Below, piece by piece: positions 9,424 through 45,388 of a stretch of DNA of 59,524 nt (the first letter of the stretch is position 1; each line of letters opens with the position of its first letter). The notes below the pieces were generated by a model that searched no databases, had not been told where the DNA came from, and saw only the letters and a list, made by a program, of their open reading frames with translations. Location: assembly GCA_017993955.1 (NCBI GenBank), contig JAGOLR010000006.1:1-59524 (forward strand), written 5' to 3'. The DNA is from Candidatus Omnitrophota bacterium. Lineage in GTDB: Bacteria > Omnitrophota > Gorgyraeia > 2-01-FULL-45-10. A program made the position numbers and the translations under genes.

Positions 9424-10538
9424 AAGAACAAGTAAAGGTATTATTTATAATATGGTCGCTTGAAAAGGGTGGGGCCGAGAGATTTTTGACAACCCTTCTT
9501 AAAAATATCGATAAAACTAGAATAGCGCCGGTTGTCTGTTGTCTTAACTGGAAAGGTGTATGGGCGAGGGAAGTCGAGGATGCCGGGGTAGAGGTAATAG
9601 AATTGAACAAAAGAGGTAAATTCGATCTTATCGCATTTCTAAAGTTAATAAAAATTATAAAGAATGGAAAATTCGATATAGTAAATACGCATCTCTGGGC
9701 TGCTGATGTTATTGGCAGGATGGCTGCTATGTTTGTAGGCACGAAGGTTATTGTAAGCACGGCGCAAAATGTGGATATATGGAAAAAGAGTTGGCACAAA
9801 AACGTGGACAAGCTGTTATCGTATCGGACCAACCAGGTAATCGCCGTATCAGGGGCAGTGAAAGAATATTATCATAATCAGGTCGGTATCCCGCTAAAGA
9901 AAATATCCTATATTCCTAATGCCATTGAAACCGAAAGGTTCGAGGATACTAAAAGCGGGGAATATATTTATAAAGAGTCGGGCTTCAGTGCGAATGATTT
10001 TATTCTTGCATGTGTTGGACGGCTGACAGAACAAAAAGGCCAGAAATACCTTTTAGCAAGTCTTAGTCTATTAAAGCCGCGATATCCTAATATCAAGATA
10101 CTTTTTGTAGGGTATGGCGAAGATGAGAAGAAGCTGAAAGAGTTGGCGAATAAGTTGGGGGTTCAAGATTCAGTAAGGTTTATGGGATACAGAAATGATA
10201 TACCTCAGATACTAAGTATTTCTAGCGGATTGGTTTTACCGTCTTTGTATGAAGGTTTGCCTCTATGTGTGCTGGAGGCAATGGCTGCAGGGAAGCCGGT
10301 TATAGCAACAGACGCCGGCGGGACTAAAGAAGTAATCGTTAATGATAAGACCGGCTTTCTGGTTCCGTACGAAAATTCGGAAAAGTTATCCGCCGCGATA
10401 GAGAAGCTATTTAATTTGCCCGATCAAGGCAAAAAAATGGGAGAAAAAGCCAGGGAAGTAGTTAATGTGGATTATTCCATAAGATCAGTCGCGGACCAAA
10501 CAGCCGAGTTGTTTTGCAATCTGGTAAGCAAAACATGA
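9420..10538 (+). CDS. Glycosyltransferase family 4
   Basis: EGLPLCVLEAMAAGKPVIATDAGGTKEVIVNDKTGFLV; ATGA start/stop overlap with upstream gene. Confidence 0.85.
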   Translation: MKEQVKVLFIIWSLEKGGAERFLTTLLKNIDKTRIAPVVCCLNWKGVWAREVEDAGVEVIELNKRGKFDLIAFLKLIKIIKNGKFDIVNTHLWAADVIGRMAAMFVGTKVIVSTAQNVDIWKKSWHKNVDKLLSYRTNQVIAVSGAVKEYYHNQVGIPLKKISYIPNAIETERFEDTKSGEYIYKESGFSANDFILACVGRLTEQKGQKYLLASLSLLKPRYPNIKILFVGYGEDEKKLKELANKLGVQDSVRFMGYRNDIPQILSISSGLVLPSLYEGLPLCVLEAMAAGKPVIATDAGGTKEVIVNDKTGFLVPYENSEKLSAAIEKLFNLPDQGKKMGEKAREVVNVDYSIRSVADQTAELFCNLVSKT

Positions 10539-15310: not shown

Positions 15311-16144
15311 ATGACTACTACTGCAAAGAATGCGTTTATTAGGTTCGGGGTGGCTTTTTTCTTGCTAATGGTGGCATACATACCTACGATTAAGTGGATG
15401 GTGGACAGATGGAATGCCTCCGACGGTTATTATGGACACGGGTTTTTGATACCTATCGTATCTGCCTTTATAATATGGCAGAGAAGGGCGGTACTGCAAA
15501 AGATAAATTTTACAACCAGCGTCTTGGGTATCTGGATCACGGCATCGGCGCTATTGGTAAATATTGTATGCGCCGCGCTAAAGATATATTTTATTTCCGG
15601 CTTTTCGCTTGTCTTTGCTTTATACGGTCTTATCCTGTTCTTTTTTGGGCGCGAGATGGTGAAGAATCTGCTATTCCCCGTATTTTTCTTATTGGCGATG
15701 GTGCCCCTGCCCTTGGTAGTAGTTGGGAACCTTACCGTAAAGATGAAGCTTTTTGCCGCTCAGTGTTCGACGTTTGTGCTTAATAAGATAGGTTTTCCTT
15801 CTATTCTTGACGGTAGCACTATACGCATGCCGAAATCTTTTATAGCAGTTGAGGCGCCTTGTAGCGGGCTTCGTTCGCTTATAGCACTTTTGACCTTAGG
15901 GTTACTTTTTGCCTATGCTCTCAAAACGTCGAAAATTAAAAAAGGGGTACTTCTGGCTTCCTCCGTACCGATAGCTATGGCTTCGAATGTGATGAGGATA
16001 GTGATGCTCGCAGTCGTAAATGATCTGTACGGTGGAAAGGTGGCCATGGGTTTCTTTCATGATATGTCAGGGTTCCTGGTATTTGGCTTTGCATTTGCCG
16101 CGTTGCTGGCGGTCAGTAAAGTCCTGGAAGGTGGCAGGAGATGA
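15311..16144 (+). CDS. Exosortase (EpsH/Xrt family transpeptidase)
   Basis: 277 aa polytopic; GHGFLIP block, catalytic-type Cys in VEAPCSGLRSL, Arg in SNVMRIVML and His in FFHDMSG, the conserved exosortase triad context. Confidence 0.85.
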   Translation: MTTTAKNAFIRFGVAFFLLMVAYIPTIKWMVDRWNASDGYYGHGFLIPIVSAFIIWQRRAVLQKINFTTSVLGIWITASALLVNIVCAALKIYFISGFSLVFALYGLILFFFGREMVKNLLFPVFFLLAMVPLPLVVVGNLTVKMKLFAAQCSTFVLNKIGFPSILDGSTIRMPKSFIAVEAPCSGLRSLIALLTLGLLFAYALKTSKIKKGVLLASSVPIAMASNVMRIVMLAVVNDLYGGKVAMGFFHDMSGFLVFGFAFAALLAVSKVLEGGRR

Positions 16145-18247: not shown

Positions 18248-18385
18248 ATGAAGAAAATTATTGATGCTTTTGGCCAGTTCATCGATGACTTAAAGAGCGA
18301 TATCGACGTCTATCTTACTATACGCAGGTACGCCAGAATAGATAAGAAGGAGAAGAGGTCTAAGATAGTTTATGCGAAAGATTAA
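18248..18385 (+). CDS. Possible 45-aa leader/small protein (MKKIIDAFGQFIDDLKSDIDVYLTIRRYARIDKKEKRSKIVYAKD)
   Basis: ATG ~3 nt after the predicted sigma-54 start site, overlaps the transferase start by 14 nt; no homology recognised. Confidence 0.25.
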   Translation: MKKIIDAFGQFIDDLKSDIDVYLTIRRYARIDKKEKRSKIVYAKD

Positions 18386-19148
18386 ATCAGGTTTTCAATA
18401 CATTTTTATAGCATCCTTCCTCGTAATATCCACGCTATTTCTGATAGGCTTATGTTATGCGCAGGCAGATACTCAATCTCCGCTTGTTGTGCCGGAGCCG
18501 AGTACTGTGGCGCTCATGTCCACAGGATTTATCGGTTGGATAATACGTTTTGCCAGAAGGCGTTTTCAGGAGTTTAAGCGTATCTTCGATGTGGTCTCTT
18601 CGGCTATCGGCATAGTAGCGGTTTCTCCGGTTATCGCGCTTACGGCGGTAGTTGTAAAGACCGTATCGCCGGGCCCGGTATTTTTCAGACAAGAGCGTGT
18701 AGGTTTAAACGGAAGACTCTTCGATATTTATAAGATAAGGACGATGCGTCTAGACGCCGAAAAAGCTACAGGACCGGTCTGGGCCCAGGAGAATGACCCG
18801 CGCCTTATAAAATTCGGAAAACTGATACGCAAGATGCACATAGATGAGCTGCCCCAGCTTTATAACGTACTTAAGGGTGAGATGAGCATAGTGGGGCCGA
18901 GACCCGAGAGACCTGTTTTCGTAAAAGAATTGAGTAACCAGATCGGCGATTATGCAAAAAGAATTCAGGTAAAACCGGGCATAACCGGTCTTGCCCAGGT
19001 ATGGCACAAGTATGATGAGACTCTCCAGGATGTAAGGAAGAAAGTGAAGTATGATCTCCTATATATAAGAGAGATGTGCCTTATGGTGGATATAAGAATA
19101 CTTATGAGGACAGTGCTTGTTTCGGCTCGAGGAAAGGGTGCAAGATAA
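18372..19148 (+). CDS. Polyprenyl-phosphate glycosyl-1-phosphate transferase (small bacterial sugar transferase, PglC/WbaP-C type) with N-terminal signal peptide + PEP-CTERM-like module
   Basis: KRIFDVVSSAIGIVAVSPV re-entrant helix, PGPVFFRQERVG, DELPQLYNVLKGEMSIVGPRPE; preceded by VPEPSTVALMSTGFIGWIIRFARRRF. Confidence 0.9.
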   Translation: MRKIKSGFQYIFIASFLVISTLFLIGLCYAQADTQSPLVVPEPSTVALMSTGFIGWIIRFARRRFQEFKRIFDVVSSAIGIVAVSPVIALTAVVVKTVSPGPVFFRQERVGLNGRLFDIYKIRTMRLDAEKATGPVWAQENDPRLIKFGKLIRKMHIDELPQLYNVLKGEMSIVGPRPERPVFVKELSNQIGDYAKRIQVKPGITGLAQVWHKYDETLQDVRKKVKYDLLYIREMCLMVDIRILMRTVLVSARGKGAR

Positions 19149-19170
19149 TTTTTTAAGGGACAACTAACTT

Positions 19171-19860
19171 ATGAAGAATATGATATTAGCATTGGTTATT
19201 ACAATGATGGTTATTGCGGCATGCGCTTCGAATGCCTATGCAATACCCGCATTACAACTCTACATACCCGGATCAGAGTATATAGATGGAGAGGATCCAT
19301 ATACTTGGTCAAGCGAGAACTGGTATACCCCGGATTCCTCATTCAATATTCAAGTGATGGCAGTAGAAAAATTTTCCTCGGTAACATTGGTGGTGGCGGT
19401 TCCGGGTGGTCAAGAGGGGGGCGTTATTATAAATGGCTCTTCATACGCAAGCGGCCAATTTGGTTACGGTACCCCAGTGATGGGTATCGCAAAAAATGGT
19501 AAACCTGACTATATGCCTTCGCATTCTATATACGATACCTCATATCTACTATATAATCTCGGACCGATAACGGTGCTTGATACTCCAGTATACGATGAAG
19601 TTGCGAGGTATTATGGGGAAGAGGGCATTACGCCTAAGCCGGGGGCTGTTATAGAGCTCGATTTTTCCAAAACAAATTTCAGTATGGCCCATTTTGACGT
19701 TTTTGGGACTACTGAAGATGGCCAGATAAAATTTGCTCCTTTCGGCCACGATGCTGAAGACGGGCCTGTGCAGCATTCCCAGACGCCGGAGCCGGTTACG
19801 ATGGCGTTATTTGGTTTAGGCCTGGCGGGAGTGGCAGGGCTTAAAATAAAGAAGAGTTAA
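19171..19860 (+). CDS. PEP-CTERM sorting-domain protein 1
   Basis: Signal peptide MKNMILALVITMMVIAACASNAYA; C-terminus TPEPVTMALFGLGLAGVAGLKIKKS. Confidence 0.85.
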   Translation: MKNMILALVITMMVIAACASNAYAIPALQLYIPGSEYIDGEDPYTWSSENWYTPDSSFNIQVMAVEKFSSVTLVVAVPGGQEGGVIINGSSYASGQFGYGTPVMGIAKNGKPDYMPSHSIYDTSYLLYNLGPITVLDTPVYDEVARYYGEEGITPKPGAVIELDFSKTNFSMAHFDVFGTTEDGQIKFAPFGHDAEDGPVQHSQTPEPVTMALFGLGLAGVAGLKIKKS

Positions 19861-19904
19861 CGAGTTGACGGGTTAGCGGATTTTTATCAATGGAAGGGAT
19901 ATGT

Positions 19905-20645
19905 ATGAAGAAGACTATTGTGGCTGCGGTTATAATCTTAACGGCTGTCGCCTCGCCGGCTTTTGCAAGTTTCATCGGTACCGAGATAAGTTTGAACCAT
20001 CGCTATGGTCGATCAAGCGATATCAAGTCGGGCCAGCCGTATGAACTTTGGCGTGTTCTATCCGATATGGGGTATGCGGCTCTTGCCGATGATGTGAGAA
20101 GGGATGTACTTGGCCAGACCACATCTTCGGCTTATAGCGCTTATAAAAATGCCTTCTGGCAGACATGCAAATATAGCAATTATCTTACTATAGAGGTTTC
20201 GGCTTATTCGTCTGCCAGTAAATTTGGCTGGTACGAAAAAGGTTTTGCCGACGATGTGGGGGACATGTCTAAATCTACTTGGGCTACCGTGTTTACAGGT
20301 GTTGATGGGGCAGGCTCTACCGCGGTGTTTAAAAATAGAAACCAACTCGGGTTCTGGATAAACCCGAATGGCGTTGCGGGCAGGTATTATTTTACTGATG
20401 CCGCTTCGAATGGCGGTAATCTTCAAGCCGTTACATTTGAGCTTGGAGGATATCAGGGGTATGACCAGGATGATTATCTTGTATGCTTTGAGGACCTTAG
20501 ATATTCTTCATGCGATTGCGATAGAGATTTTCAGGATATGATAGTCAGAGTCCATACTTCAAGAGAATGTCCCGAACCTATCACCATGGCCCTATTTGGC
20601 TTGGGGGTGGTTGGCGTTGCTTTAAGTAGATATAGGAAACATTAA
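19905..20645 (+). CDS. PEP-CTERM sorting-domain protein 2 (DUF4114-like segment)
   Basis: Signal peptide MKKTIVAAVIILTAVASPAFA; DYLVCFEDL...DRDFQDMIVRV; C-terminus CPEPITMALFGLGVVGVALSRYRKH; start 19905 has GGAAGGG 6 nt upstream. Confidence 0.85.
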   Translation: MKKTIVAAVIILTAVASPAFASFIGTEISLNHRYGRSSDIKSGQPYELWRVLSDMGYAALADDVRRDVLGQTTSSAYSAYKNAFWQTCKYSNYLTIEVSAYSSASKFGWYEKGFADDVGDMSKSTWATVFTGVDGAGSTAVFKNRNQLGFWINPNGVAGRYYFTDAASNGGNLQAVTFELGGYQGYDQDDYLVCFEDLRYSSCDCDRDFQDMIVRVHTSRECPEPITMALFGLGVVGVALSRYRKH

Positions 20646-20681
20646 TATTAGTCATTATAGATAAAAAATGGAGGTGGATGG

Positions 20682-21356
20682 ATGAAAAAAATAGTTGTTG
20701 TAGCTGTTTTAATATTGATTTTTGGATTTGCCGGTTCAGCGTATGCGACCGTAACGCCAATATCATATCCGACCGGATATAGCGAGAAATGGCTCGATAG
20801 AGACAGGTGGCTTTCTACGTCTATAATAGGGACGCTATTCGGTTTAAATAATGTCACGAGGATAGATGACGATCTGGACCAGATATGGGCGGCCGGCGCT
20901 AACGCAAATGTCAGAGCCGTTGCTAAGTATGCCGGGGACGCTCAGCGTCTATACGCCGGAACTACCCATCTTTTGGATATAACAAGCGGCAATTTCTGTA
21001 GCCTGACAAGCGGCGCTACGGCAGGTTTCACCGCTTCCGGGGCTTTCAAATTTTACGATGACTCGGGTCCGGCTGGCGGGACGATCTGGAGCTCGTTGGT
21101 AAGCGAGAATTCGGACGGTCGTGACCATATGGTTACTTACAGGATAATCAATTCCGGTGGTACAAATTATTCCATTGGTGACTATGTCATAGCCTGGGAA
21201 GACGGGACCGACTGGGATTATAACGATATGGTGTTTGTGCTTCATGATGTGACCAATAATCCCGAGACTAGTCACGCTACTCCTGAGCCGGCCACGATGG
21301 CGCTTATGGGGCTGGGGTTGGCGGGGTTAGTGGCGCGTAAGAAAAAAAGAATTTAG
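20682..21356 (+). CDS. PEP-CTERM sorting-domain protein 3 (DUF4114-like segment)
   Basis: Signal peptide; YVIAWEDGTDWDYNDMVFVL; C-terminus TPEPATMALMGLGLAGLVARKKKRI. Confidence 0.85.
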   Translation: MKKIVVVAVLILIFGFAGSAYATVTPISYPTGYSEKWLDRDRWLSTSIIGTLFGLNNVTRIDDDLDQIWAAGANANVRAVAKYAGDAQRLYAGTTHLLDITSGNFCSLTSGATAGFTASGAFKFYDDSGPAGGTIWSSLVSENSDGRDHMVTYRIINSGGTNYSIGDYVIAWEDGTDWDYNDMVFVLHDVTNNPETSHATPEPATMALMGLGLAGLVARKKKRI

Positions 21357-21428
21357 CTCTGAGCTTTGTGCTATGCGCTGTGTGCTTAATATCTTAGCCC
21401 ATAGCTCATAGCACAAAGCCCCTAGCTC
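21354..21428. repeat. Long imperfect palindrome built of 7-nt units (TAGCTCT GAGCTTT GTGCTAT GCGCTGT GTGCTTA / TTAGCCC ATAGCTC ATAGCAC AAAGCCC CTAGCTC)
   Basis: 13-bp perfect stem GCTTTGTGCTATG/CATAGCACAAAGC plus extensions; lies between PEP-CTERM genes 3 and 4. Confidence 0.6.
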
Positions 21429-21466
21429 TAATATAGTAAAATTCACGAACGGAAGGAGGTGAACAG

Positions 21467-22066
21467 ATGAGAAAAGCTTATTTAGTTCTGTTTGTTTTGC
21501 TGATGGCAGCAGCTATGCCTGTAATTAGCGCTGAGGCAGCAATACTGGCGGATGGGTATACGACTTATGCTGCCACTTCATTTGATGCTGTGGTGTATTG
21601 GAGGGTATATTCACCGTTAGATACTTCGTCACCGTTGGGTTCGATAAATGACTATAGTTATTTTTATCAAGTCCATAATGCTGGTACTGGGACTGATAGA
21701 TCAATAACTCAGCTTGGCGTTGATAATCCATTCCAGCTGACGATCACCACCGCGGGGTATCTGACAACGCTTAATCTGGACGGGTTATCAGGAACCGTGG
21801 CGCCTAACACTACTACATATGGCGGTGAGAATAGTGGTCTATGGACTTTCCAGACACCATCAATTGGTTTAGGGAAGGACAGCTATTTGCTGTATTTTAC
21901 ATCTCCATATGCTCCTAGTAAGGTTAACGGGGGCGTGCAGGCCGGATCTTATAACGCAGAAGGCCCTGTTCCGGGGCCGGTTCCGGAGCCAGCTAGTATG
22001 GCGTTGCTGAGTATTGGCTTAGCAGGATTCGCTGGTAAAGCACTAAGAAGGAAGTTCAGGTCATAG
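21467..22066 (+). CDS. PEP-CTERM sorting-domain protein 4
   Basis: Signal peptide MRKAYLVLFVLLMAAAMPVISAEA; C-terminus VPEPASMALLSIGLAGFAGKALRRKFRS; GGAGGTG SD. Confidence 0.85.
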   Translation: MRKAYLVLFVLLMAAAMPVISAEAAILADGYTTYAATSFDAVVYWRVYSPLDTSSPLGSINDYSYFYQVHNAGTGTDRSITQLGVDNPFQLTITTAGYLTTLNLDGLSGTVAPNTTTYGGENSGLWTFQTPSIGLGKDSYLLYFTSPYAPSKVNGGVQAGSYNAEGPVPGPVPEPASMALLSIGLAGFAGKALRRKFRS

Positions 22067-24476: not shown

Positions 24477-24518
24477 ATCGTGGCCAATGCTAATAGTTTA
24501 CAATTTCGTCAGGGCGAA

Positions 24519-25904
24519 ATGATAAAAAACCGAATATTAGTTGTTGACGACGATCAATTAGTCCAGAAATCGCTTTATGAGATGCTGTGCCGCGCGGGTT
24601 ACGGCGTGGATATAGCGGATTCTATCAACAAAGCCCTGGACCACCTACATGAAAACTCCTACCAGGTAGTGCTCCTAGACTCAAATATCTCCGATACCAA
24701 ACAATTGACCAGGCTTCTCGACATGCCCTCGAGGCAATCGCGGGTGATATTGCTGGCATCCTACGGCGACGTGGATAATATAGTCAAGAATTTTAAGCCA
24801 AAGATATTCGATTATATAACGCGGCCCGTCGAGGATGAGAAGATACTGAAGATGATCGAGCGTTCTTTCGCCAGCAGACCTGTCGCTATATCCATGGACC
24901 TTTTGCGCGAGAAGGTCGATCTCTCGCCCGAAATATCATATAACGGGCTCGTAGGTATCAGTAAGGGGATGAGGGATATATATTCAGTAGTAAGCCGGGT
25001 GGCCCAATCAAAGGCCACCGTTCTTTTGCGCGGAGAGAGCGGCACCGGTAAGCGCATGATAGCCCATGCTATACATAAGGCCGACAAGATCCGGAAAGAC
25101 AGACCTTTTATAGAGATATCGTGCGGGGCTCTGCCGCGGGAGATAATAGAGAGTGAACTATTTGGCCACACCAAAGGATCCTTTACCGGCGCGACCAATG
25201 ATAGGAAAGGTCGCTTTGAGCTTGCTAACGGCGGCACGATACTTCTCGACGATATAGATACGATGCCTCTGGACCTGCAAGTCAAACTCCTCCGAGTGCT
25301 TCAGGAAAAAGAGTTCGAAAGAATAGGCGACCATAAGACGATAAAGGTCGATGTACGTATAATAGTGTCCACCAACCAAGACCTGGAAAAGCTGATAGCC
25401 GAGAAGAAGTTCAGGGAAGACCTGTACTACCGCGTGAATGTCATCTCTATAAATGTCCCGCCTTTGAGAAGTAGAAAAGACGACCTGAGATATCTTGTAG
25501 AGCACTTTGTTAGGATCTACGTAAAGGAGAATCATAAAAATATCCATTCGGTATCTCAGGACGCTTTTGAGGCCTTGGAGCAATACAATTGGCCCGGTAA
25601 TATAAGAGAGCTGGAAAATATCATCGAGCGGGCTGTTATTTTGGATACAGATAACATAATCGACTGCGACGACTTCCCGAGTCTCATAACTACCAGCGTG
25701 CCCTTGGATGAAAAAGCGGCGGCATCCAAAGATCTGTCAAGCGCAATGGCGGATTGCCTTAAAGATGCATTAAAGGAGCCGGAGAAGGTATATATACTGC
25801 GGATAATGGAAGAGACCGGATGGAATAAACGCAAGGCGGCCGAACGTCTTGGCATTAACCGCACGACGCTGTACAATAAATTAAAAAAACTTAACATACT
25901 CTAA
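24519..25904 (+). CDS. Sigma-54-dependent transcriptional activator (NtrC family: receiver + AAA+ + Fis-type HTH)
   Basis: ILVVDDD, VVLLD; Walker A GESGTGK, GAFTGA-type loop GSFTGA, ESELFGH, C-terminal RKAAERLGINRTTLYNKLKK. Confidence 0.9.
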   Translation: MIKNRILVVDDDQLVQKSLYEMLCRAGYGVDIADSINKALDHLHENSYQVVLLDSNISDTKQLTRLLDMPSRQSRVILLASYGDVDNIVKNFKPKIFDYITRPVEDEKILKMIERSFASRPVAISMDLLREKVDLSPEISYNGLVGISKGMRDIYSVVSRVAQSKATVLLRGESGTGKRMIAHAIHKADKIRKDRPFIEISCGALPREIIESELFGHTKGSFTGATNDRKGRFELANGGTILLDDIDTMPLDLQVKLLRVLQEKEFERIGDHKTIKVDVRIIVSTNQDLEKLIAEKKFREDLYYRVNVISINVPPLRSRKDDLRYLVEHFVRIYVKENHKNIHSVSQDAFEALEQYNWPGNIRELENIIERAVILDTDNIIDCDDFPSLITTSVPLDEKAAASKDLSSAMADCLKDALKEPEKVYILRIMEETGWNKRKAAERLGINRTTLYNKLKKLNIL

Positions 25905-28623: not shown

Positions 28624-28654
28624 ACGCTTGGCACTAGCTAAAGGAGCACATGTT

Positions 28655-31600
28655 ATGCGAAACTTACATAGAGCTGTAGGCTTTAATATTTTTACGACGA
28701 TACTTATTGTATACGCCGCGTCTTCGTTTGCATTTGCCGCGGACGTTGGCACCGTGACATACGTCGAAGGCAGGGTCGACACCCTTAGCTCCGGTTCCGA
28801 TATGGGCATGCCGCTAAGACAGGGCGATACCATAGCGGTAGGCGACGCCTTGAGGACGAAATCAAATTCAAAGCTGGAGGTCACATTTAACGATAAATCC
28901 GTCCTCAGAGTGGCTCAAAACTCAAAAGTAGTGGTCAAAGACTATCAGCTCGATGCATCCAACAGAAGGCAGGCCGCCAACATTCTGCTGGAGAGGGGCA
29001 AGGCCAGGACTATCATAGCTAAGATGCCGCGCGCGGCTGACTTCATAATATCTACACCCAATGCATCCGGAAGCGTCAAGGGTTCGGACATATTTACTTC
29101 TTACCAGGCGGGCAACAGCGGAATGCTTGTTGCCGAGGGAAAACTTTCCGTGGTTAATACTTTGAAGCCCGAGCCCGCCGTTATTATACCGGCCGGCAGC
29201 GCAGTAGTCGTATCCCTGGAAGAGACTCCGAAGGGGCCGAGGCAGTATTTCGAAACAGAAAAGAAGATGTATGAACAGGATACGGAGATACCAGCCACCA
29301 TAGCGAGAACTCCCGGCGCGTCCGAGATAAAGGGCGCCATAGCCAAGCTGTCCGGAGACGTCAGGGTGACCTTTAAGAAGACGGGCGAGACGCGCGAGGC
29401 AAGCATCAACGATATCTTGGAGGCCGGAGATACCATCGCGACCGGCGACAACGGTATGGTCGAAATAAAATTCGATAACGGTAACGGCATAAATCTGAAG
29501 CCTAATTCCGACATAAAGATAAACAGCCTTGTTATGGACGCTAAGACCGGTGAATACGAGAACCTTTTTGAGTCTACTAAAGGCAGGATACGTTCACGCA
29601 TAGAAGGTCTTAAGGGTAAGTCCAAATTCGAGATCAAGACGCCCGTTGCCGTGAGTGGAGCCCGAGGCACCATAATGTACCTGGAGATAACGCCTACCAG
29701 AGTGAGGGCGTTTTTCGAAGGCGGTAGAGGAAGCCTTATGAGTTTGATAAGCGGTATCGAGAAGATGGTGGAGGCGGGTGAGAACGCGTGGTCGGATGTC
29801 TCCGGGTTAGTTTCCGAGTCTATGCGCACGCCAGAATCCGAAAGGACATCCTGGGGTGAAGGATGGACTCCCGGGAACGGCACGGAAGGCTACAGCGCTC
29901 CCGACGGTTCTACCGGCGTATATCTTTCGAACGAAGGTGGAAACATAGATATAGTTGAACGTGTATCGACGGAAAACTTTACCGGCCCTGGGAATGACGG
30001 GCCTTTGAACGACCCGCTCCTAAACCCGATCTTCGGTTCCGATGAAGAAGGAAATGGGGAGGGGGAGGAAGAGATCGGCGTTACGGCGGCCGGTTGGATG
30101 GATGGCAGCGTCTACTCTACGGAAACCTCCGGTAGTTTTAATGGGCTTGTCACTATTCTGGGTAATTTCTGGGATGGAAACTCCGCCCAATTTTCATCGG
30201 CAGGAGATTTTTACGGAGGCGCACACGGCCAGTCATTTAGCTGGTCAGGGCCTTTGTATAGTTATTACACTGTATCCGAAGGAGAGCATTCATATACCAC
30301 GTACGACGGAGGCGCTTTTTACGGTATGGCCGTAGGGATAGGCGGGCTTAACGGTTACGAAATAATGGAAGGACTTGCAAAACTTCTGTATATAGATCCA
30401 TCCGGCAATGCCGGTATCGCCGAAGGAGATCTCGCGGGAATATACGACGAGGCGAACTACAAATTTTTATTGCTTAGCGATAATATAACCGGATACCAAA
30501 AGGCGGAAAATATAGGCGTATCTCCCGAGATGCTGTATGATTCCATACATACAACTATGGGAAGCGGATATATGTACGGGGATTCTATCGACGCATATGA
30601 GGAGCTTAGAACTATGTGCATAGCTAATTACGATGAAAGTTATGCGCAGAATTGGGGCATATATGACCAGAGGTTCACTTCGGGCTATATCGGTTCGGAA
30701 GGTGAATGGGCCGCGCATATGGGCGGTAAGGATGCTTTTGGCGCCTACACCTATATAGAACAGAGCCTGACCAATAATCTCGAAGGTACGGGTCCTGGCC
30801 AACTTTTGGACGACTATGGATATTGGGTAGCCGATATTACCGAAGGTACGGCGGAAAACGGCTGGTTATCGGCCAAGCTAAACGGTAAATTTGTCACAAG
30901 ATATAAGATGGGAACTCTGAGCGGTGATATACTCGGTGTATACAACATGGAGGGTGGTTTAGAGACGGCTTATGGTGAGGGCTCGTGGCAAGGGGTCGGC
31001 ATAGGCGTATGGGAAGGGACCCCGCTTACGTTGAGCGGTTACCTGGACCATGGTTACAACGAAGACTCTCCGGGTCTTTACTACAATAACGGCGGGATGA
31101 TGGAATTCGGATCCAATACAGACGGATTGTTGGGAAGCGTAGATTCGCCTCTTTACGGCGTATATGGTTTTAACATGATGGGCGAATACGAGGATTATGG
31201 GTCTCAATCGATCTGGCGAGCCAACATAGCCGGCGACGATGCCGCCGGCGGCAGTTACGCATATTACGGATTTGTTTCAGGATTATGGGATGACGATCTG
31301 GTCGATGCGTATATCACCGCTATCTACATGAACGATCAGGGTGAGGCCGGATATCTTACCGGAGAGGCTAAGGGGCGCGCTTATCCCGGTATTGATATGT
31401 GGATGGTCGAAGGCACCCTTCAATCGGAAATAATGGCATCTGAGATGGAATCTAACGACATATCCGCTTTTTTGGAGTATATATCATACGGCAGTCTGTC
31501 GGGCGAAGTATATGGTTCCGAGTCCGAGTCTTACTATATGAGCGGGTCCTCGTATTCCGGTTCTACTTATTATCTGGCATATGAGGATTGGGGTATATAC

Positions 31601-33298
31601 AACATAGCTTTTGGAAGTGAAAACACTTATGGAAACTATGACGGACGTAAAACCTGGTGGGCCGATATATACGGGGAAGGCATGTTTGGCAACTTCTATG
31701 GATATCAAGGCATAATGAAAGGCAAATTCCATGGTTTGCACGATGGTGAAGGGACATGGATCGGTAACAGTTCAGGTATATGGTACGCAATCGATACGGC
31801 TGAAGAGTACGGCGAGTACGGTGTTTATGCCGGTTTCATGAACGGAGTGTGGGATGAGAACGGGATTATGACAGGTAATATGATAGCCATTTACGACCAA
31901 TCCCCGGGTGCTTGGCTTGAGGAGACCTTTTTATCTATACCATACGAAGGAGGGCTCTTCTATGGCGGTTTCAACGGCGGAAGCGATATGTATTTGTACG
32001 ATCTGAACGGGAAGTTCTACAACTTTTCCGGTAAGGATTGGGGTATATGGAGGGCAAACCTTGCGGGTGAATCGTATAGTCAGGGTGGTATATTAAAGCT
32101 ATTTATGGCAGGCGATATGAATTATGACAACGACGGCTATATGGTTACCGATGGTTACTGGTTCGGCGTAGTGGCGGGAGTCCAGGTGCCCGGATTTCAA
32201 AAGATTACAGGTATATTCAGAGGTCTATCGCTAAGTTTTATCGGCGATGGTATGAGTAACGTCTCTTTGGACTCGGGGGATATGGTCGGGGCCATCTATG
32301 ATATAGACGGGGAATATAATATATGGGAGATGGCCGGTCTCGGTACCTCGCAAAATATCGGTACCATATATACTAGCCCCGAAGGTACCAGCGATTTTAC
32401 GAATAATTTTATAATGGAAGGCGACGTCAACATGTCCGGCGCCGGCCGTTTTATAGACGGAGGCGAGATAAATATCGAACCGTTCGGAGGTAATGTATAT
32501 AACATCCAGGGCGAGAAAGACGGTATATGGATAAACGCCTTTAGCGGCACATGCTCCGATCCGACTGAATCTTTTGACATAGCGCTGTACGGGATAGGTG
32601 GTGAGAATACTTATCGTTATATACTGGCGGAGGCCAAAGGCGAGATGCAGGAGCCTGTGCTGTCAGGCACTTTTGACGGTATATGGATAGGTCTTTCCGA
32701 GGAACAATACGGCGCATTATCCGGCGGCGTAATGACAGGGGAGATGGTAGGTTATATAGATGTTGAAGAGGAGGGGGTCTGCAGTCTTCAAGCGGTGGCG
32801 GCAGGGGAGTGGGTAGAGGCCGAATCGCTTCTTAATACGACCGATATAAACACTCTCAATACATCTATCCAGGAGTTAGCAAGCGCTGTCAATATACCGA
32901 TAACAGAAGTTTATAGTGTGGTCAATATGACCGGTGTCGGAACCGGCGGAATAACATCAGCTGTCATGGATATAAATCTGTACGCACTGCAGCCTAATAT
33001 GCTCCAAGGTATATGGGCATCTATAATAAACGGCGCTTATTCAAACATAGAAAGTCCTGCCGGATGGACAGCCACCGTTGTGAACGGCGGGGATACGGCA
33101 ACTTTGTTGGGAACAAACTGGGGCGATGGCCAGTGGGCAGCCAATGTTTCAGGTACTGTAGGCGGTAATGCCATAACCGGTCAGGCCGGCGGTACATACA
33201 GCGGAGAGGGTTCCGGTACATTCACCGGGGTAGGCGCCGGCACATGGAATGCTCCCGGAGTGGATCCGATACAGCCTCCGCAGCAGGATCCTAGCTAA
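28655..33298 (+). CDS. 1547-aa secreted protein: two FecR-like domains followed by ~1050 aa of degenerate Gly/Tyr/Trp/acidic repeats
   Basis: Signal peptide FNIFTTILIVYAASSFAFA; FecR-like LRQGDTIAVGDALRTKSNSKLEVTFNDKSVLRV and ILEAGDTIATGDNGMVEIKFDNGNGINLKPNS; recurring (D/Q)xGIW/Y motif; AAGGAG SD 8 nt before ATG. Confidence 0.8.
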   Translation: MRNLHRAVGFNIFTTILIVYAASSFAFAADVGTVTYVEGRVDTLSSGSDMGMPLRQGDTIAVGDALRTKSNSKLEVTFNDKSVLRVAQNSKVVVKDYQLDASNRRQAANILLERGKARTIIAKMPRAADFIISTPNASGSVKGSDIFTSYQAGNSGMLVAEGKLSVVNTLKPEPAVIIPAGSAVVVSLEETPKGPRQYFETEKKMYEQDTEIPATIARTPGASEIKGAIAKLSGDVRVTFKKTGETREASINDILEAGDTIATGDNGMVEIKFDNGNGINLKPNSDIKINSLVMDAKTGEYENLFESTKGRIRSRIEGLKGKSKFEIKTPVAVSGARGTIMYLEITPTRVRAFFEGGRGSLMSLISGIEKMVEAGENAWSDVSGLVSESMRTPESERTSWGEGWTPGNGTEGYSAPDGSTGVYLSNEGGNIDIVERVSTENFTGPGNDGPLNDPLLNPIFGSDEEGNGEGEEEIGVTAAGWMDGSVYSTETSGSFNGLVTILGNFWDGNSAQFSSAGDFYGGAHGQSFSWSGPLYSYYTVSEGEHSYTTYDGGAFYGMAVGIGGLNGYEIMEGLAKLLYIDPSGNAGIAEGDLAGIYDEANYKFLLLSDNITGYQKAENIGVSPEMLYDSIHTTMGSGYMYGDSIDAYEELRTMCIANYDESYAQNWGIYDQRFTSGYIGSEGEWAAHMGGKDAFGAYTYIEQSLTNNLEGTGPGQLLDDYGYWVADITEGTAENGWLSAKLNGKFVTRYKMGTLSGDILGVYNMEGGLETAYGEGSWQGVGIGVWEGTPLTLSGYLDHGYNEDSPGLYYNNGGMMEFGSNTDGLLGSVDSPLYGVYGFNMMGEYEDYGSQSIWRANIAGDDAAGGSYAYYGFVSGLWDDDLVDAYITAIYMNDQGEAGYLTGEAKGRAYPGIDMWMVEGTLQSEIMASEMESNDISAFLEYISYGSLSGEVYGSESESYYMSGSSYSGSTYYLAYEDWGIYNIAFGSENTYGNYDGRKTWWADIYGEGMFGNFYGYQGIMKGKFHGLHDGEGTWIGNSSGIWYAIDTAEEYGEYGVYAGFMNGVWDENGIMTGNMIAIYDQSPGAWLEETFLSIPYEGGLFYGGFNGGSDMYLYDLNGKFYNFSGKDWGIWRANLAGESYSQGGILKLFMAGDMNYDNDGYMVTDGYWFGVVAGVQVPGFQKITGIFRGLSLSFIGDGMSNVSLDSGDMVGAIYDIDGEYNIWEMAGLGTSQNIGTIYTSPEGTSDFTNNFIMEGDVNMSGAGRFIDGGEINIEPFGGNVYNIQGEKDGIWINAFSGTCSDPTESFDIALYGIGGENTYRYILAEAKGEMQEPVLSGTFDGIWIGLSEEQYGALSGGVMTGEMVGYIDVEEEGVCSLQAVAAGEWVEAESLLNTTDINTLNTSIQELASAVNIPITEVYSVVNMTGVGTGGITSAVMDINLYALQPNMLQGIWASIINGAYSNIESPAGWTATVVNGGDTATLLGTNWGDGQWAANVSGTVGGNAITGQAGGTYSGEGSGTFTGVGAGTWNAPGVDPIQPPQQDPS

Positions 33299-37827: not shown

Positions 37828-39099
37828 ATGGAAAGAAGAAACCAAAGAAAGATGGTTGCTTTGATACTGGGCGGCGGCCAGGGTAAGCGGTTATTCCCGC
37901 TTACCATGTACCGCTCCAAACCGGCCGTACCGATAGGCGGTAAATACAGGCTTATAGACATACCGATATCCAATTGTCTCCATTCAAATATTAAAGACAT
38001 ATACGTCCTTACCCAATTTAACTCCGAATCTCTTAATAACCATATAAATAATACATATCGTTTTGATTATTTCTCAAGGGCTTTTGTGCGCATACTCGCG
38101 GCCGAGCAGACTCTGGACAATATAAACTGGTTCCAGGGGACTGCCGATGCAGTACGTAAGAATATAATCCATCTCAACCTCCAGGGTGACGAAGACGTGC
38201 TGATACTCTCCGGCGACCATCTTTACAATATGGATTACAGGGATTTTGCCGCTTTTCATAGAAAGACCGGCGCGGATTTTTCGGTTTCAGTCCTCCCTAT
38301 ACGCGAAAGCGAGGTCAGGGAATTCGGCATACTTGAGTTGGCCGCAAACGGCCGGATATCCCGGTTCAAGGAAAAGCCTAAAACAAAGTCGGATCTTAAA
38401 GGGTTCCATTATGTCGGCGGCAAGGGTTTTCCCGGAGGCCGTTTCTCCAAAGGGTCTTATTTTCTGGCATCTATGGGTGTGTACATATTCAATGCGAAGG
38501 CCCTTAAAAAAGCGCTGGATAATACGGATGCCGATTTCGGTAAAGAGGTTATACCGCATTCCATAAAGAACCTTAAAGGCTACGGATATGTGTTTGACGG
38601 TTACTGGAAAGATGTCGGGACGATAAAATCTTTTTACGATGTGAATATGGAGATGGCCGCTTCTAAACCGCATTTCGATTTTTTCTACGAAGGTGACGTA
38701 TTTACCAGGCCTCGGTTCCTTCCGGCTGCCAGAGTATTAAATTCCAGGCTCCAGCATTGCATAGTTTCCGAAGGTTGCGTTATAAGCGACGCGGAGGTTA
38801 AAAACTCTATCGTTGGCTTGCGCACTATAATAGAAAAACGCTGCCGCATAACCAGGACGGTGCTTATGGGCGCGGATTATTTTGAGCGCGATAAGGCTAG
38901 CGGGTCCGTAAAGCTGGGTATCGGTGATGGCACCACTATAGATAAGGCTATAGTCGATAAGAACGCCAGAATAGGCAAGAACTGCGTTATAAGGAACCTC
39001 AAAGGACTGAAGAATTTTGACGGGCCGAATTATTATATCCGCGACGGAGTCGTGATAATACCGAAGAATGCGGTCATTAAGGATAACACCAAGATATAA
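37828..39099 (+). CDS. glgC: Glucose-1-phosphate adenylyltransferase
   Basis: LILGGGQGKRLFPLTMYRSKPAVPIGGKYRLIDIPISNC, C-terminal hexapeptide domain; start could also be ATG 37852. Confidence 0.9.
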   Translation: MERRNQRKMVALILGGGQGKRLFPLTMYRSKPAVPIGGKYRLIDIPISNCLHSNIKDIYVLTQFNSESLNNHINNTYRFDYFSRAFVRILAAEQTLDNINWFQGTADAVRKNIIHLNLQGDEDVLILSGDHLYNMDYRDFAAFHRKTGADFSVSVLPIRESEVREFGILELAANGRISRFKEKPKTKSDLKGFHYVGGKGFPGGRFSKGSYFLASMGVYIFNAKALKKALDNTDADFGKEVIPHSIKNLKGYGYVFDGYWKDVGTIKSFYDVNMEMAASKPHFDFFYEGDVFTRPRFLPAARVLNSRLQHCIVSEGCVISDAEVKNSIVGLRTIIEKRCRITRTVLMGADYFERDKASGSVKLGIGDGTTIDKAIVDKNARIGKNCVIRNLKGLKNFDGPNYYIRDGVVIIPKNAVIKDNTKI

Positions 39100-42798: not shown

Positions 42799-43440
42799 TT
42801 ACTTTCCGTAGAATTTATTGATGGAATCCAGTATCTCCTGTGGCGTGTCCACGACGGAAAACAGGTTGAATTCCGTTTTACTTATCGTCTTATATCTCAC
42901 GCAAGTCTTTTTCATCCATGAGACGGCGCCTTTCCAGAAATCCCTGCCAACCAGTATTACCGGGAAAGGGTCCACCCTTTCGGTCTGTACGAGCGTTATA
43001 GCTTCAAATAGCTCATCCAGGGTGCCGTAACCGCCGGGGAACACCACGAAGGCGCGCGCGTATTTTACGAACATAACTTTTCTTACAAAGAAGTATCTGA
43101 AAGAGACCAATCTTGTTACATAAGGATTCGGTTTTTGAACCGTAGGTATCAATATATTCAGCCCTATCGACTCCCCGCCGGCTTCTTTAGCGCCTTTATT
43201 ACCTGCCTCCATTATCCCGCCGCCGGCTCCGGTGATGACCGCGTAGCCCGATTCTACCAGAAGCCTCGCGGTCTTCTCGGCTATTTTGTAGGGCTTGCTC
43301 GAAGGATGAGAACGGGCAGAGCCGAATATGGATACGGCGTTGTCGACATCGGAGAGTTCTTCAAAACCATCGACAAATTCGCTCATTATCCGGAATATAC
43401 GCCAAGGGTCTTCTTTTACAAAATCGCCTTTTAATGCCAT
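42799..43440 (-). CDS. LOG family (TIGR00730) cytokinin riboside 5'-monophosphate phosphoribohydrolase-like protein
   Basis: ITGAGGGIMEAGNKGA and PGGYGTLDELFE motifs. Confidence 0.85.
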   Translation of the reverse strand: MALKGDFVKEDPWRIFRIMSEFVDGFEELSDVDNAVSIFGSARSHPSSKPYKIAEKTARLLVESGYAVITGAGGGIMEAGNKGAKEAGGESIGLNILIPTVQKPNPYVTRLVSFRYFFVRKVMFVKYARAFVVFPGGYGTLDELFEAITLVQTERVDPFPVILVGRDFWKGAVSWMKKTCVRYKTISKTEFNLFSVVDTPQEILDSINKFYGK

Positions 43441-43441
43441 A

Positions 43442-43882
43442 TTATTTTTTTACCTCCGTTATTATGGTTTTTATATTAAATCTCATCAGGATGCGGTAAG
43501 TCAGAAAGTATGACATCGGGGTTACGGGGTTCACTATTTGATCGAATATCAGATGTTGAGTGAATCCTATGGCCGCGGCCTTCCATATATCTGACAGAGA
43601 ATACGCGTATATTACTATCCAGAGGATGGCTATGAATTCATATGAGTGCAGGACAAGATAAAGCCTCTTAAAGTTTATATCGAGGCAGGCCGCATAGATC
43701 TTTTTAATATTTAACGTGTAAGGATGGTTTAAGTAGTAGTCTATGAAATGGTCGGCGTCTACGAGTACGCCTGCGGCAAAAGAGACGATAGCGCACCATA
43801 AGGATTGGAAATGCGACCATACGTATACGCTTATTATGCCGGAAGTTACGACGTGAGCCAGAGGTCTCGTGGAAATTCTCCG
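43442..43882 (-). CDS. Membrane-bound metal-dependent hydrolase-like (YdjM/DUF457-like) ORF without canonical start codon
   Basis: 146 sense codons open between stops; PLAHVVTSGIISVYVW...AAGVLVDADHFIDYY...; only ATT (43876) or CTG (43861) near the 5' end; stop 1 nt before LOG ATG; missed by ORF track. Confidence 0.4.
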   Translation of the reverse strand, partial: RRISTRPLAHVVTSGIISVYVWSHFQSLWCAIVSFAAGVLVDADHFIDYYLNHPYTLNIKKIYAACLDINFKRLYLVLHSYEFIAILWIVIYAYSLSDIWKAAAIGFTQHLIFDQIVNPVTPMSYFLTYRILMRFNIKTIITEVKK

Positions 43883-43886
43883 TTAT

Positions 43887-45182
43887 TTAGAGCTTTATCA
43901 CGGAGTCGAATGTACCGAAAGAGTTCTGCTCCAGATTTTTATTGTCTGAATCTATGGTCCACTCACCGTCGACTACGTATTTGTACTTATACTTATTACC
44001 CGGGGCCAGTTGAATACGCTTCTCCCACCTTCCCTCAGCGGTTCTGGATAGGCGGCTGGAGTCGTTGATCTTCCAGTGATTGAAGTCACCTACAAGAAAT
44101 ATATCCTTAGCGTTAGGCGCGTTTATGGCAAAGGTGATCTCCTTTTCGGAGTCTGTGTCGACTATGGGACTCTGTGACGCAGGAGCCGCGTTTTGGACGA
44201 CGGCCTCTTCTGTGAGGGTTTTCGGCGCTACCGTTTCTATCTCATTCTTTACTACAGGCGCAGTAGTTGTAACGGGATCGACCCTGTCTTCTACCGGAGA
44301 AGCGGTGGTTAACGTTACGGGTTCGGGCTCGCTGGTTGTAGCGACCCGGTCTTTTTTCACATCATCGATATTTTTCACTATAGATGATATCTTCATATCC
44401 TTTTCGAACTCTGATACGCCGTCGACCCGAAGGATTTCATGCGCCAAAGCCAGATAATCGATCGCGCCGTTGGATTCCCTGTCGAATTGCACTACGGACA
44501 TCCCCCTGGCGGCGGCTTTTTTCAGGGATATGCTCATCCTTATGACGGTCGAGAGCATCTGCTCTTTGAAGAACGAGCGTATGTCTTCGAGCATAGTCTG
44601 GCAATATTTTGTCCTTTTATCGTAGATGGTGCCCAGGGCATTGACGCGCGGCGAGTGGTGTATCTTTATCTTTATAAGCTCCAGCATCCCTAAAAGCTTC
44701 CCCACTCCCATGAGAGAGAAGGCGCTCATGTCTATCGGGACTATTATGTATTCCGCCGCGCGGAGGGCATTGAATGTTAGAAAGCCCAGGCTGGGCGGGC
44801 AATCTATTATCGCGTAATCGTAGTCGAGTTTTCCGTCATAAAGGGACTGGTGCAGTTTGGATACGGCGTCCTCTTTATCTTTCAGCTCCTGCTCCAGCGT
44901 GCTCAAAAGTATATTAGAAGTGACCATGTCAAGCTTATCGCTTACATTGGTTATGCACTCAGTTATAAGGCGGTGTTTTTCAAGATTTTCGGTCAGGACG
45001 TTGTATATGGACCTGTCTACGGTCTGGTTTGTCGCTCCCAGGCCGAAAGTCGCGTGGGCCTGCGGGTCCAGATCTATGAGGAGCACCCTTACTCCGGATA
45101 CGGCCAATGCGCTTGCCAGGTTTATGGCTGTCGTAGTCTTACCGCAGCCGCCTTTTTGGTTTGCTATTGCGATAGTCTTCAT
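43887..45182 (-). CDS. ParA/Soj/MinD-type ATPase fused to C-terminal CBM48/AMPK-beta-type glycogen-binding domain
   Basis: KTIAIANQKGGCGKTTTAINLA...LIDLDPQ; T/P/V/E-rich linker; ITFAINAPNAKDIFLVGDFNHWKI...GRWEKRIQLAPGNKYKYKYVVDGEWTIDSDN; AAGGAGA SD. Confidence 0.8.
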   Translation of the reverse strand: MKTIAIANQKGGCGKTTTAINLASALAVSGVRVLLIDLDPQAHATFGLGATNQTVDRSIYNVLTENLEKHRLITECITNVSDKLDMVTSNILLSTLEQELKDKEDAVSKLHQSLYDGKLDYDYAIIDCPPSLGFLTFNALRAAEYIIVPIDMSAFSLMGVGKLLGMLELIKIKIHHSPRVNALGTIYDKRTKYCQTMLEDIRSFFKEQMLSTVIRMSISLKKAAARGMSVVQFDRESNGAIDYLALAHEILRVDGVSEFEKDMKISSIVKNIDDVKKDRVATTSEPEPVTLTTASPVEDRVDPVTTTAPVVKNEIETVAPKTLTEEAVVQNAAPASQSPIVDTDSEKEITFAINAPNAKDIFLVGDFNHWKINDSSRLSRTAEGRWEKRIQLAPGNKYKYKYVVDGEWTIDSDNKNLEQNSFGTFDSVIKL

Positions 45183-45257: not shown

Positions 45258-45388
45258 ATATGAGGTTTATCTGTTTAATCATAATTTTATATTTGCTAAT
45301 AAATATACGCTATAAATCGTATATTGACAACCTTTTTAGTTAAAAAATTATGGAAAGCCAGATCGTTAAATCCATCAAATATTTAACT

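Follow-up and report, generated by a model that had tools for sequence, protein, structure and literature searches.

A ParA-type ATPase carrying a predicted glycogen-binding module in Omnitrophota: a candidate tether between glycogen and the nucleoid

Is there a bacterial machinery that decides where in the cell glycogen is kept? ParA/MinD ATPases are general bacterial placers of large objects, including chromosomes, plasmids, carboxysomes, chemoreceptor arrays and division sites; for glycogen, the commonest bacterial carbon store, we know of no placement system. The question is raised by a gene on contig JAGOLR010000006.1 (assembly GCA_017993955.1) of a Candidatus Omnitrophota bacterium, of which positions 1 to 59,524 (59.5 kb, hereafter “the window”) were analyzed. 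This gene encodes a ParA-type ATPase joined through a linker to a carbohydrate-binding module (CBM) of family CBM48, and an initial annotation had proposed it as a candidate glycogen-granule positioning protein, stating that no such system had been characterized. In agreement with that statement, literature searches returned no account in which a ParA/MinD ATPase is joined to CBM48 or a ParA protein has glycogen for its cargo. We favor, tentatively and at slightly less than an even chance, the view that the product is an orphan Soj/ParA-type ATPase whose tethered CBM48 serves to attach glycogen to the nucleoid, and to distribute it there, in an ATP-dependent manner. Each domain is of a well-known family; what is new is their combination, its breadth and the direct binding of cargo that it implies.

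Pfam domain profiles and structure models bear out the division of the protein into ParA ATPase, linker and CBM48 that the initial annotation had described, and the strand, which it had omitted, is the minus strand (Table 1). An artifact of gene fusion or frameshift was considered and excluded, as the same architecture is shared by all 120 nearest protein clusters and by 83 of the 84 family loci that were compared. Those clusters show 49 to 94% identity, and the named ones come from Candidatus Omnitrophota metagenome-assembled genomes (MAGs), where they are labeled “AAA family ATPase” or “chromosome partitioning protein,” the latter name originating from JGI. The full-length AlphaFold2 (AF2) model has a pLDDT of 65 overall and of below 50 at aa 265 to 345, and it gives nothing reliable on contacts between the domains. 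The linker, 83 aa long here, ranges from 6 to 158 aa in the family (median, 42 aa) and its sequence is not conserved. Variation in length and sequence between two conserved domains is the pattern expected of a tether. No signal peptide is present in the fusion protein, and the cytoplasmic alpha-glucan is glycogen.

Several lines of evidence identify the C-terminal module. The CBM48/AMPK-beta signature noticed initially is recovered by two Pfam profiles, both above their gathering cut-offs: AMPK1_CBM at aa 357 to 429 (38.2 bits versus 26.8) and CBM_48 at aa 344 to 408 (32.7 bits versus 22.4). Modeled alone with AF2, the module reaches a pLDDT of 93.6, and its top PDB matches in Foldseek are the CBMs of AMPK beta1 and beta2, SEX4 and SNF1 beta (probability 1.00, TM score of 0.82 to 0.91, rmsd of 1.2 to 1.8 Å). 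In a residue alignment to 1Z0M, W370, K401, W408, F422 and D426 fall on W100, K126, W133, L146 and N150 of AMPK beta1, which we take to be the carbohydrate-contact residues of Polekhina et al. (2005), and each of these five positions is kept or conservatively replaced. The aromatic platform for carbohydrate binding, on which the initial proposal depended, is retained, with W370 and W408 in this protein and both tryptophans in 83 of 84 relatives (family conservation counts are from an 84-sequence alignment). At the position equivalent to K126 (position 401), 77 of 84 relatives have K or R and six have Q; the complete triad of W, K or R, and W is retained by 77 of 84, from at least six phyla. 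By sequence and by fold alike, the closest matches bind alpha-glucans without exception (AMPK beta, SEX4, LSF1 and the GlgB N-domain), and in both respects the module is nearer to the regulatory AMPK-beta/SEX4 type than to the type found at the N termini of enzymes. By profile, fold and contact residues, the module is a predicted AMPK-beta-type glycogen-binding domain. NCBIfam also returned a weak match of aa 349 to 424 to a type IX secretion system (T9SS) plug protein. A profile search with the CBM alone gave no usable family size, being swamped by tandem multi-CBM48 proteins; the closest CBM48 relatives in a library of 1.8 billion proteins carry 3 to 18 tandem CBM48 copies, and many are ∼480 aa long with four copies (P0121-P0270).

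The ATPase domain is matched by AAA_31 (aa 1 to 174; E = 1.6e-52) and CbiA (aa 4 to 230) in Pfam. Its best solved relatives, over aa 2 to 254, are chromosomal ParA/Soj proteins, namely, Myxococcus ParA (8RAY; 1.1e-43) and the Soj proteins of T. thermophilus and H. pylori. Matches to McdA, ParF, MinD, MipZ and FlhG are far weaker than those to Soj/ParA, the Pfam CBP_BcsQ and NCBIfam cellulose_yhjQ profiles match weakly, and the fusion misses the threshold of the NCBIfam ParA_partition equivalog NF041546 (110.3 bits versus a cut-off of 180). All but one of the 84 family sequences, the exception being truncated, have the signature lysine K10 and the catalytic K15, and the switch aspartates D37 and D39 (DLDPQ) and the Walker B D127 (IIDCPP) show little or no variation in the family. 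Membership of the deviant Walker-A superfamily is given by these motifs, and ATP-driven dimerization and hydrolysis are only predicted. In the family, KGGCGKT is found in 82 of 84 sequences; the canonical ParA/Soj proteins compared here read KGGVGKT instead. Redox sensitivity is one possibility for this near-invariant P-loop cysteine (Cys13; codon at 45144-45146).

Binding to the nucleoid would require a DNA-contacting surface. The basic patch through which Soj contacts nonspecific DNA (nsDNA) comprises four residues, R189, K201, R215 and R218 in BsSoj, as described in a study of H. pylori Soj with DNA (PMC6393308). In the fusion family, R occupies position 190 in all 84 sequences, position 202 is R or K in 74 and position 219 is K or R in 68. 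Position 216 is hydrophobic across the family, and 83 of 84 sequences have K or R at position 221. The window protein is basic at R190 and R202 and, next to its nonbasic M216 and S219, carries the basic R215, K221 and K222. The last of these replaces the family's E in the window's lineage, which is also the lineage without a basic residue at position 219, and K222 looks like compensation for that loss. The Soj-type nsDNA patch appears largely kept, and DNA binding by the family is plausible.

The initial annotation had reported neither parB nor centromere-like repeats beside the gene, and wider searches agree. Pfam detects no ParB domain in window ORFs (open reading frames) of ≥120 aa, the parS sequence TGTTTCACGTGAAACA has no match in the 59.5-kb window with up to 3 mismatches, and no iterated repeats lie near the fusion gene. 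Six-frame translations of ±10 kb contain a ParB-like ORF in 0 of 87 family loci. The probes were two motif regexes, an annotated Aerococcus ParB and a B. subtilis Spo0J sequence that was validated against that annotated ParB (E = 4.6e-87). With the same probes, a ParB-like ORF was found within 3 kb in 80 of 80 canonical ParA loci retrieved with the Myxococcus ParA; these control loci were drawn from assemblies other than the fusion-bearing ones. The control ParAB pairs include some from Myxococcota, Gemmatimonadota, Thermodesulfobacteriota and Spirochaetota, and nothing was returned for Omnitrophota or Planctomycetota. At least 5,000 plasmid records match the query; among the matches listed, only the ATPase part is matched, at ≤41% identity. 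A plasmid partition protein was considered and rejected: one record among the at least 5,000 ParA-carrying plasmid records covers ≥80% of the fusion. Across the 87 loci and the plasmid records, homologues do not steadily neighbor parB or plasmid genes, the pattern that the initial annotation had named as contrary to its proposal.

A survey of the taxonomic spread, as had been suggested initially, shows that the fusion extends well beyond the phylum of the window. At least 593 candidate loci were found in species-representative genomes, and the best 80 of these, nearly all full-length fusions, are from Omnitrophota and six further phyla: Planctomycetota, Thermodesulfobacteriota, Myxococcota, Gemmatimonadota, Spirochaetota and Auribacterota. 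Finer groups include Phycisphaerae, Sedimentisphaerales, Tepidisphaerales and MAGs labeled Pirellulales within Planctomycetota, together with Gemmatimonadales, Spirochaetaceae and one Myxococcota chromosome. Five loci (L014, L022, L026, L027 and L038) are labeled “uncultured Planctomycetia/Planctomycetales” yet have an Omnitrophota-type gene order around the fusion; such third-party assembly labels are probably unreliable, and the phylum counts are therefore approximate. In a rough neighbor-joining tree, the 83 ATPase cores group in a single clade of their own, separate from canonical ParAs. The same core, at 49% identity and with KGGCGKT, also occurs in a Desulfobacteraceae MAG (L068:10001-10768 and downstream) with an acidic, repetitive, disordered C-terminal tail of ∼150 aa where CBM48 would be expected, which suggests that the C-terminal module is swappable.

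Linkage of the fusion to glycogen genes, which the initial annotation had suggested surveying after noting glgC 5 kb away, holds within Omnitrophota, through glgC and GH57, and was not seen, in a crude screen, in ∼50 loci of other phyla. The measured distance to glgC is 4.8 kb, and the gene is on the opposite strand. The order purQ, fusion, (YdjM-like ORF), LOG, mnmG, radical SAM (rSAM) and glgC is kept in five loci of the window's lineage; glgC is context and no demonstrated part of the fusion system. In a second Omnitrophota lineage, whose fusion is ∼37% identical to that of the window, GH57 - c1 - fusion - c5 - c2 are packed closely in an array on one strand, with median gaps of 55, 20, −1 and 17 bp. 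The GH57 gene (Pfam 1e-60) lies two genes upstream of the fusion on the same strand in 15 loci (among them L017, L018, L020, L023, L024 and L029; e.g., L018:7801-9360). The c1 product spans the membrane once, has a beta-sandwich domain and is homologous to c23 (hhalign, 96.8%), which takes the same upstream position in other Omnitrophota. The 108-aa c5 is a membrane protein whose gene and the neighboring fusion have overlapping stop and start codons. Found one or two genes downstream of the fusion in 19 loci (L023:11514-11936 and 18 more), c2 is ∼120 to 180 aa long, begins with a tail very rich in Lys and ends in a small, conserved beta-barrel domain; it is the sole candidate noticed for a ParA-stimulating partner, and it could also be a nucleoid protein. 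Hidden Markov models (HMMs) of c1, c2, c5 and c23 match nothing in the window, and Pfam and NCBIfam have no matches for c1, c2, c5, c23, c37 or the YdjM-like ORF apart from the weak match to YdjM. Small membrane proteins flank the fusion in most Omnitrophota loci, the window included. Omnitrophota MAGs are reported to encode GlgABC, and members of the phylum are inferred to be glycogen makers (PMC8542988). The alpha-glucan linkage is real but narrow, being confined to one phylum.

If glycogen is the cargo, the following cycle can be proposed. On binding ATP, the protein would form the sandwich dimer typical of deviant Walker-A ATPases, and the dimer would bind the nucleoid nonspecifically through the Soj-type basic patch. 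The two tethered CBM48 modules of each dimer would grip glycogen particles, and many weak, ATP-gated links would anchor glycogen and spread it along the nucleoid, such that it would not coalesce at a pole and would be inherited by both daughters. ATP hydrolysis would free the DNA contact and reset the cycle. With the ATPase itself placed on the cargo, and with no evident activator in the window, a dynamic tether or a hitch-hiking device is likelier than a ratchet driven by a ParB or McdB. In E. coli, which is without such a protein, condensates of glycogen form at the old pole and push the nucleoid and the division site out of place (PMC12706056), indicating that a spatial problem exists for such a system to solve. 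Glycogen binding, DNA binding, dimerization and an effect on granule position are each properties that we infer for the fusion. The family may represent a self-contained, adaptor-less ParA system, spread over Omnitrophota, Planctomycetota and a number of further phyla, that has glycogen as its cargo and holds granules on the nucleoid through ATP-gated links; we regard this as a serious possibility, somewhat short of an even chance.

A number of observations weigh against tethering of glycogen to the nucleoid. Known ParA positioning systems need a partner that stimulates the ATPase, and such a partner is not evident in the window. The initial suggestion that an adaptor is fused to the ATPase stands only in part: a module of glycogen-binding type is in the same chain, but known adaptors also activate the ATPase. 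Two of the four canonical basic-patch positions are nonbasic in the window protein (M216 and S219). Outside Omnitrophota, ∼50 loci have no glycogen-gene linkage within 10 kb besides one PGM-like ORF, an absence that is indicative only, as the screen was crude (motif regexes for GlgA, GlgP, GH13 and PGM and BLAST with glgC and GH57 seeds). Within Omnitrophota, the glg linkage amounts to about two ancestral arrangements. The membrane neighbors (YdjM-like; c1/c23 and c5) hint at a membrane-linked process that lies outside the tether model. Many Omnitrophota are reported to be very small cells, in which active positioning seems less necessary. Finally, the function of every family member is a prediction.

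Other readings of the same architecture have to be weighed. The fusion could be a switch reporting glycogen status, in which CBM48 would sense glycogen in the manner of AMPK beta and the glycogen load would sequester or modulate a ParA-type switch with its output elsewhere; possible outputs are placement of the division site (as for MipZ, PomZ and MinD) or control of replication and segregation (as for Soj acting on DnaA), which would couple the cell cycle to carbon reserves. The regulatory type of the module, the Soj-like core with its apparently kept basic patch and the position of the fusion outside glg operons in most phyla are all consistent with a switch, as is the disturbance of nucleoid and division position by glycogen condensates in E. 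coli (PMC12706056). We nevertheless regard it as unlikely, if worth keeping in view: no known target or partner (ParB, DnaA or FtsZ regulators) is linked to the fusion in any locus, a long, variable and disordered tether fits reach toward a bulky particle better than it fits allosteric coupling, and the CBM-kinase contacts needed for AMPK allostery have no counterpart in the fusion. Rather unlikely, too, is a granule organizer acting independently of the nucleoid, in which the ATP-dependent dimer would pair two CBM48 modules, cross-link particles and so control granule size or clustering; in a variant suggested by analogy with BcsQ, the protein could be a scaffold for glycogen enzymes or membrane anchors on the granule. 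Such an organizer would suit the GH57 - c1 - fusion - c5 - c2 array with its overlapping stop and start codons, the small membrane proteins adjoining the fusion in most Omnitrophota loci, including the window, and the weak CBP_BcsQ and cellulose_yhjQ matches. However, it would have no need of a Soj-type basic patch, which appears largely conserved across the family, with R190 invariant. Further, the matches to BcsQ, MinD and tyrosine kinases are much weaker than those to Soj/ParA, the array is found in one Omnitrophota lineage and no enzyme partner is conserved beyond it.

Two further alternatives deny glycogen a central place. The protein might be an ordinary chromosome-partition ParA (Soj) that works with a distant ParB and parS, CBM48 being an accessory that anchors, for example, the segregation machinery or the origin to glycogen. 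Its best solved relatives are indeed of that kind, JGI gives homologues the corresponding name, the 59.5-kb window contains no other ParA, and mnmG/gidA, a classical neighbor of parAB, is two or three genes away in the window's lineage. This proximity is, however, confined to that one lineage, and ParB is near 0 of 87 fusion loci, compared with 80 of 80 canonical ParA loci. Canonical ParA-ParB pairs also exist in four of the fusion-bearing phyla, though in different genomes. Together with the missing parS in the window, the score well below the ParA_partition cut-off and the separation of the family as a clade from canonical ParAs, these results make a chromosomal ParA improbable. It is also conceivable that the C-terminal CBM48-like beta-sandwich binds another ligand, such as a protein partner or a different glycan, and that the link to glycogen is spurious: CBM48/E-set folds are reused elsewhere, as the weak T9SS plug match illustrates, six relatives have Q at the K126 equivalent, and L068 has an acidic tail in place of the module. 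Set against both platform tryptophans in 83 of 84 relatives, the conservation of the other contact positions, closest matches that are all alpha-glucan binders and a protein that, lacking a signal peptide, would meet glycogen as the alpha-glucan of the cytoplasm, a different ligand seems very improbable.

The genes around the fusion in the window complete the picture. It belongs to a minus-strand run, carA - carB - purF - guaA - purSL - purQ - fusion - small ORF - LOG - mnmG - DUF2490 - radical SAM. The 446-bp “gap” downstream of the fusion is not intergenic and contains an intact 142-codon ORF encoding the small YdjM-like membrane protein, a homologue of which sits directly downstream of the fusion in both L001 and L003; the Pfam YdjM match of the L001 protein is weak. 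This ORF has no ATG, GTG or TTG start, the position homologous to the start being ACG, with ATT and CTG nearby, and it was missed in the ORF listing because of the ACG. Spacings of 17 nt from the fusion stop codon to the small ORF and of 1 to 2 nt from there to LOG suggest one transcription unit, and the YdjM-like ORF and LOG are probably cotranscribed with the fusion. Promoter and terminator matches near the fusion are no commoner than in shuffled sequences, and Rfam and tRNA scans of the window gave no matches.

Table 1. Positions of the fusion gene, its parts and neighboring features in the window
Feature	Position	Strand	Details
Entire ParA-linker-CBM48 fusion gene	43887..45182	−	431 aa; intact ORF, stop codon included; Pfam; homologues of the same architecture
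Soj/ParA-type ATPase domain, aa 1-262	44397..45182	−	Conserved EFEK helix at end; Pfam AAA_31; solved Soj relatives
Deviant Walker A NQKGGCGKTT, aa 8-17	45132..45161	−	Signature lysine K10, catalytic K15, family-specific Cys13
T/P/V/E-rich linker, aa 263-345	44148..44396	−	Predicted disordered
AMPK-beta-type CBM48 module (predicted), aa 346-431	43890..44147	−	Key residues W370, K401, W408, F422, D426
Sigma-70-like promoter match TTGTCA-17-TATATT	45302..45330	−	In the 206-bp purQ-fusion gap; pointer only
Small YdjM-like membrane-protein ORF	43442..43870	−	142 codons; product 57% identical over 137 aa to that of the L001 gene immediately following the fusion
LOG/lysine-decarboxylase-like gene	42799..43440	−	Pfam Lysine_decarbox 2e-36; order kept in L001, L003, L005 and L007
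glgC, ADP-glucose pyrophosphorylase	37828..39099	+	NTP_transferase and LbH_GLGC; 4.8 kb from the fusion; position conserved in 5 Omnitrophota loci

Elsewhere in the window, positions 1-24050 hold a large exosortase/PEP-CTERM exopolysaccharide locus, with an exosortase (15311-16144), an EpsI-like DUF3485 protein, five consecutive PEP-CTERM proteins (18372-22066), several GT4 and GT2 glycosyltransferases, a pyruvyl transferase and a 992-aa Wzy_C plus beta-helix fusion (10514-13492). It is followed downstream by a sigma-54 response regulator (24480-25904) and a PocR-GAF sensor. The gene at 28628-33298 (plus strand), preceded by a TPR protein gene, encodes a 1,556-aa protein in which an N-terminal FecR is the sole recognizable domain, leaving ∼1,400 aa unannotated.

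The architecture is secure and the hypothesis lends itself to direct tests; the functions discussed here are predictions throughout. If tethering of glycogen to the nucleoid is correct, this would be the first dedicated machinery for placing or partitioning a storage polysaccharide, which would join the list of ParA cargoes, and a ParA that grips its cargo directly, with no activating adaptor, would challenge the standard ratchet scheme. It would also offer a concrete handle on the organization and inheritance of glycogen, consisting of one gene with two separable domains and clear point mutants. The family is prominent in Omnitrophota and Phycisphaerae, which are poorly understood and for which there are few cell-biology leads.

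Comparison with known systems indicates what the fusion shares with each. Its module has the fold and glucan-contact residues of the CBM48 modules of AMPK beta, SEX4 and LSF1, but those are carried on eukaryotic kinase scaffolds and glucan phosphatases, whereas this one is on a bacterial ParA with a long disordered linker. MinD and BcsQ belong to the same P-loop superfamily, and the membrane-protein neighbors of the fusion's relatives and the polysaccharide theme recall them, but their matches (∼1e-8 for MinD; Pfam 1.2e-6 for BcsQ) are much weaker than those of Soj/ParA. The C-terminal amphipathic membrane-targeting helix of MinD is absent, since the C terminus of the fusion is the all-beta CBM48, ending ...FDSVIKL. 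With chromosomal ParA/Soj of the type Ib ParABS systems (M. xanthus 8RAY, T. thermophilus 1WCV and H. pylori 6IUB), the ATPase aligns end to end, and identity to the sampled canonical ParAs is 36 to 41%. Common features are the signature lysine of the deviant Walker A motif, the DxD switch, Walker B and a small size with no N-terminal DNA-binding domain; most of the nsDNA patch also appears to be present. Unlike ParA/Soj, the fusion has no nearby ParB or parS, forms its own clade with KGGCGKT, falls under the ParA_partition cut-off and bears a tether and CBM48.

Conceptual precedents for tethering of granules to the nucleoid are provided by PomXYZ and PhaM. PomZ dimers of M. xanthus hold a large cytoplasmic cluster on the nucleoid, and PhaM of Ralstonia ties the polyhydroxybutyrate (PHB) granule directly to DNA, by which means granules are inherited. 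PomZ reaches its cluster through PomX and PomY, unlike the fusion with its built-in domain; PhaM has no ATPase and a polyester cargo, and neither system involves glycogen or a CBM. Adaptor-based parallels are McdA/McdB, ParC/ParP and PpfA/TlpT, in which a separate cargo-bound adaptor links the cargo and stimulates the ATPase, in McdAB-like systems usually by means of a basic N-terminal tail. The fusion is likewise an orphan ParA-type protein, presumably nucleoid bound and with a presumed bulky non-DNA cargo, although its ATPase matches McdA far more weakly (E of about 1e-12) than Soj/ParA. No McdAB-like adjacent adaptor is evident in the window, where only the YdjM-like membrane ORF and LOG lie downstream. 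Where the McdAB-type systems divide the work between ATPase and adaptor, the fusion, with no adaptor or activator evident in the window, carries its putative cargo-binding module within the ATPase itself.

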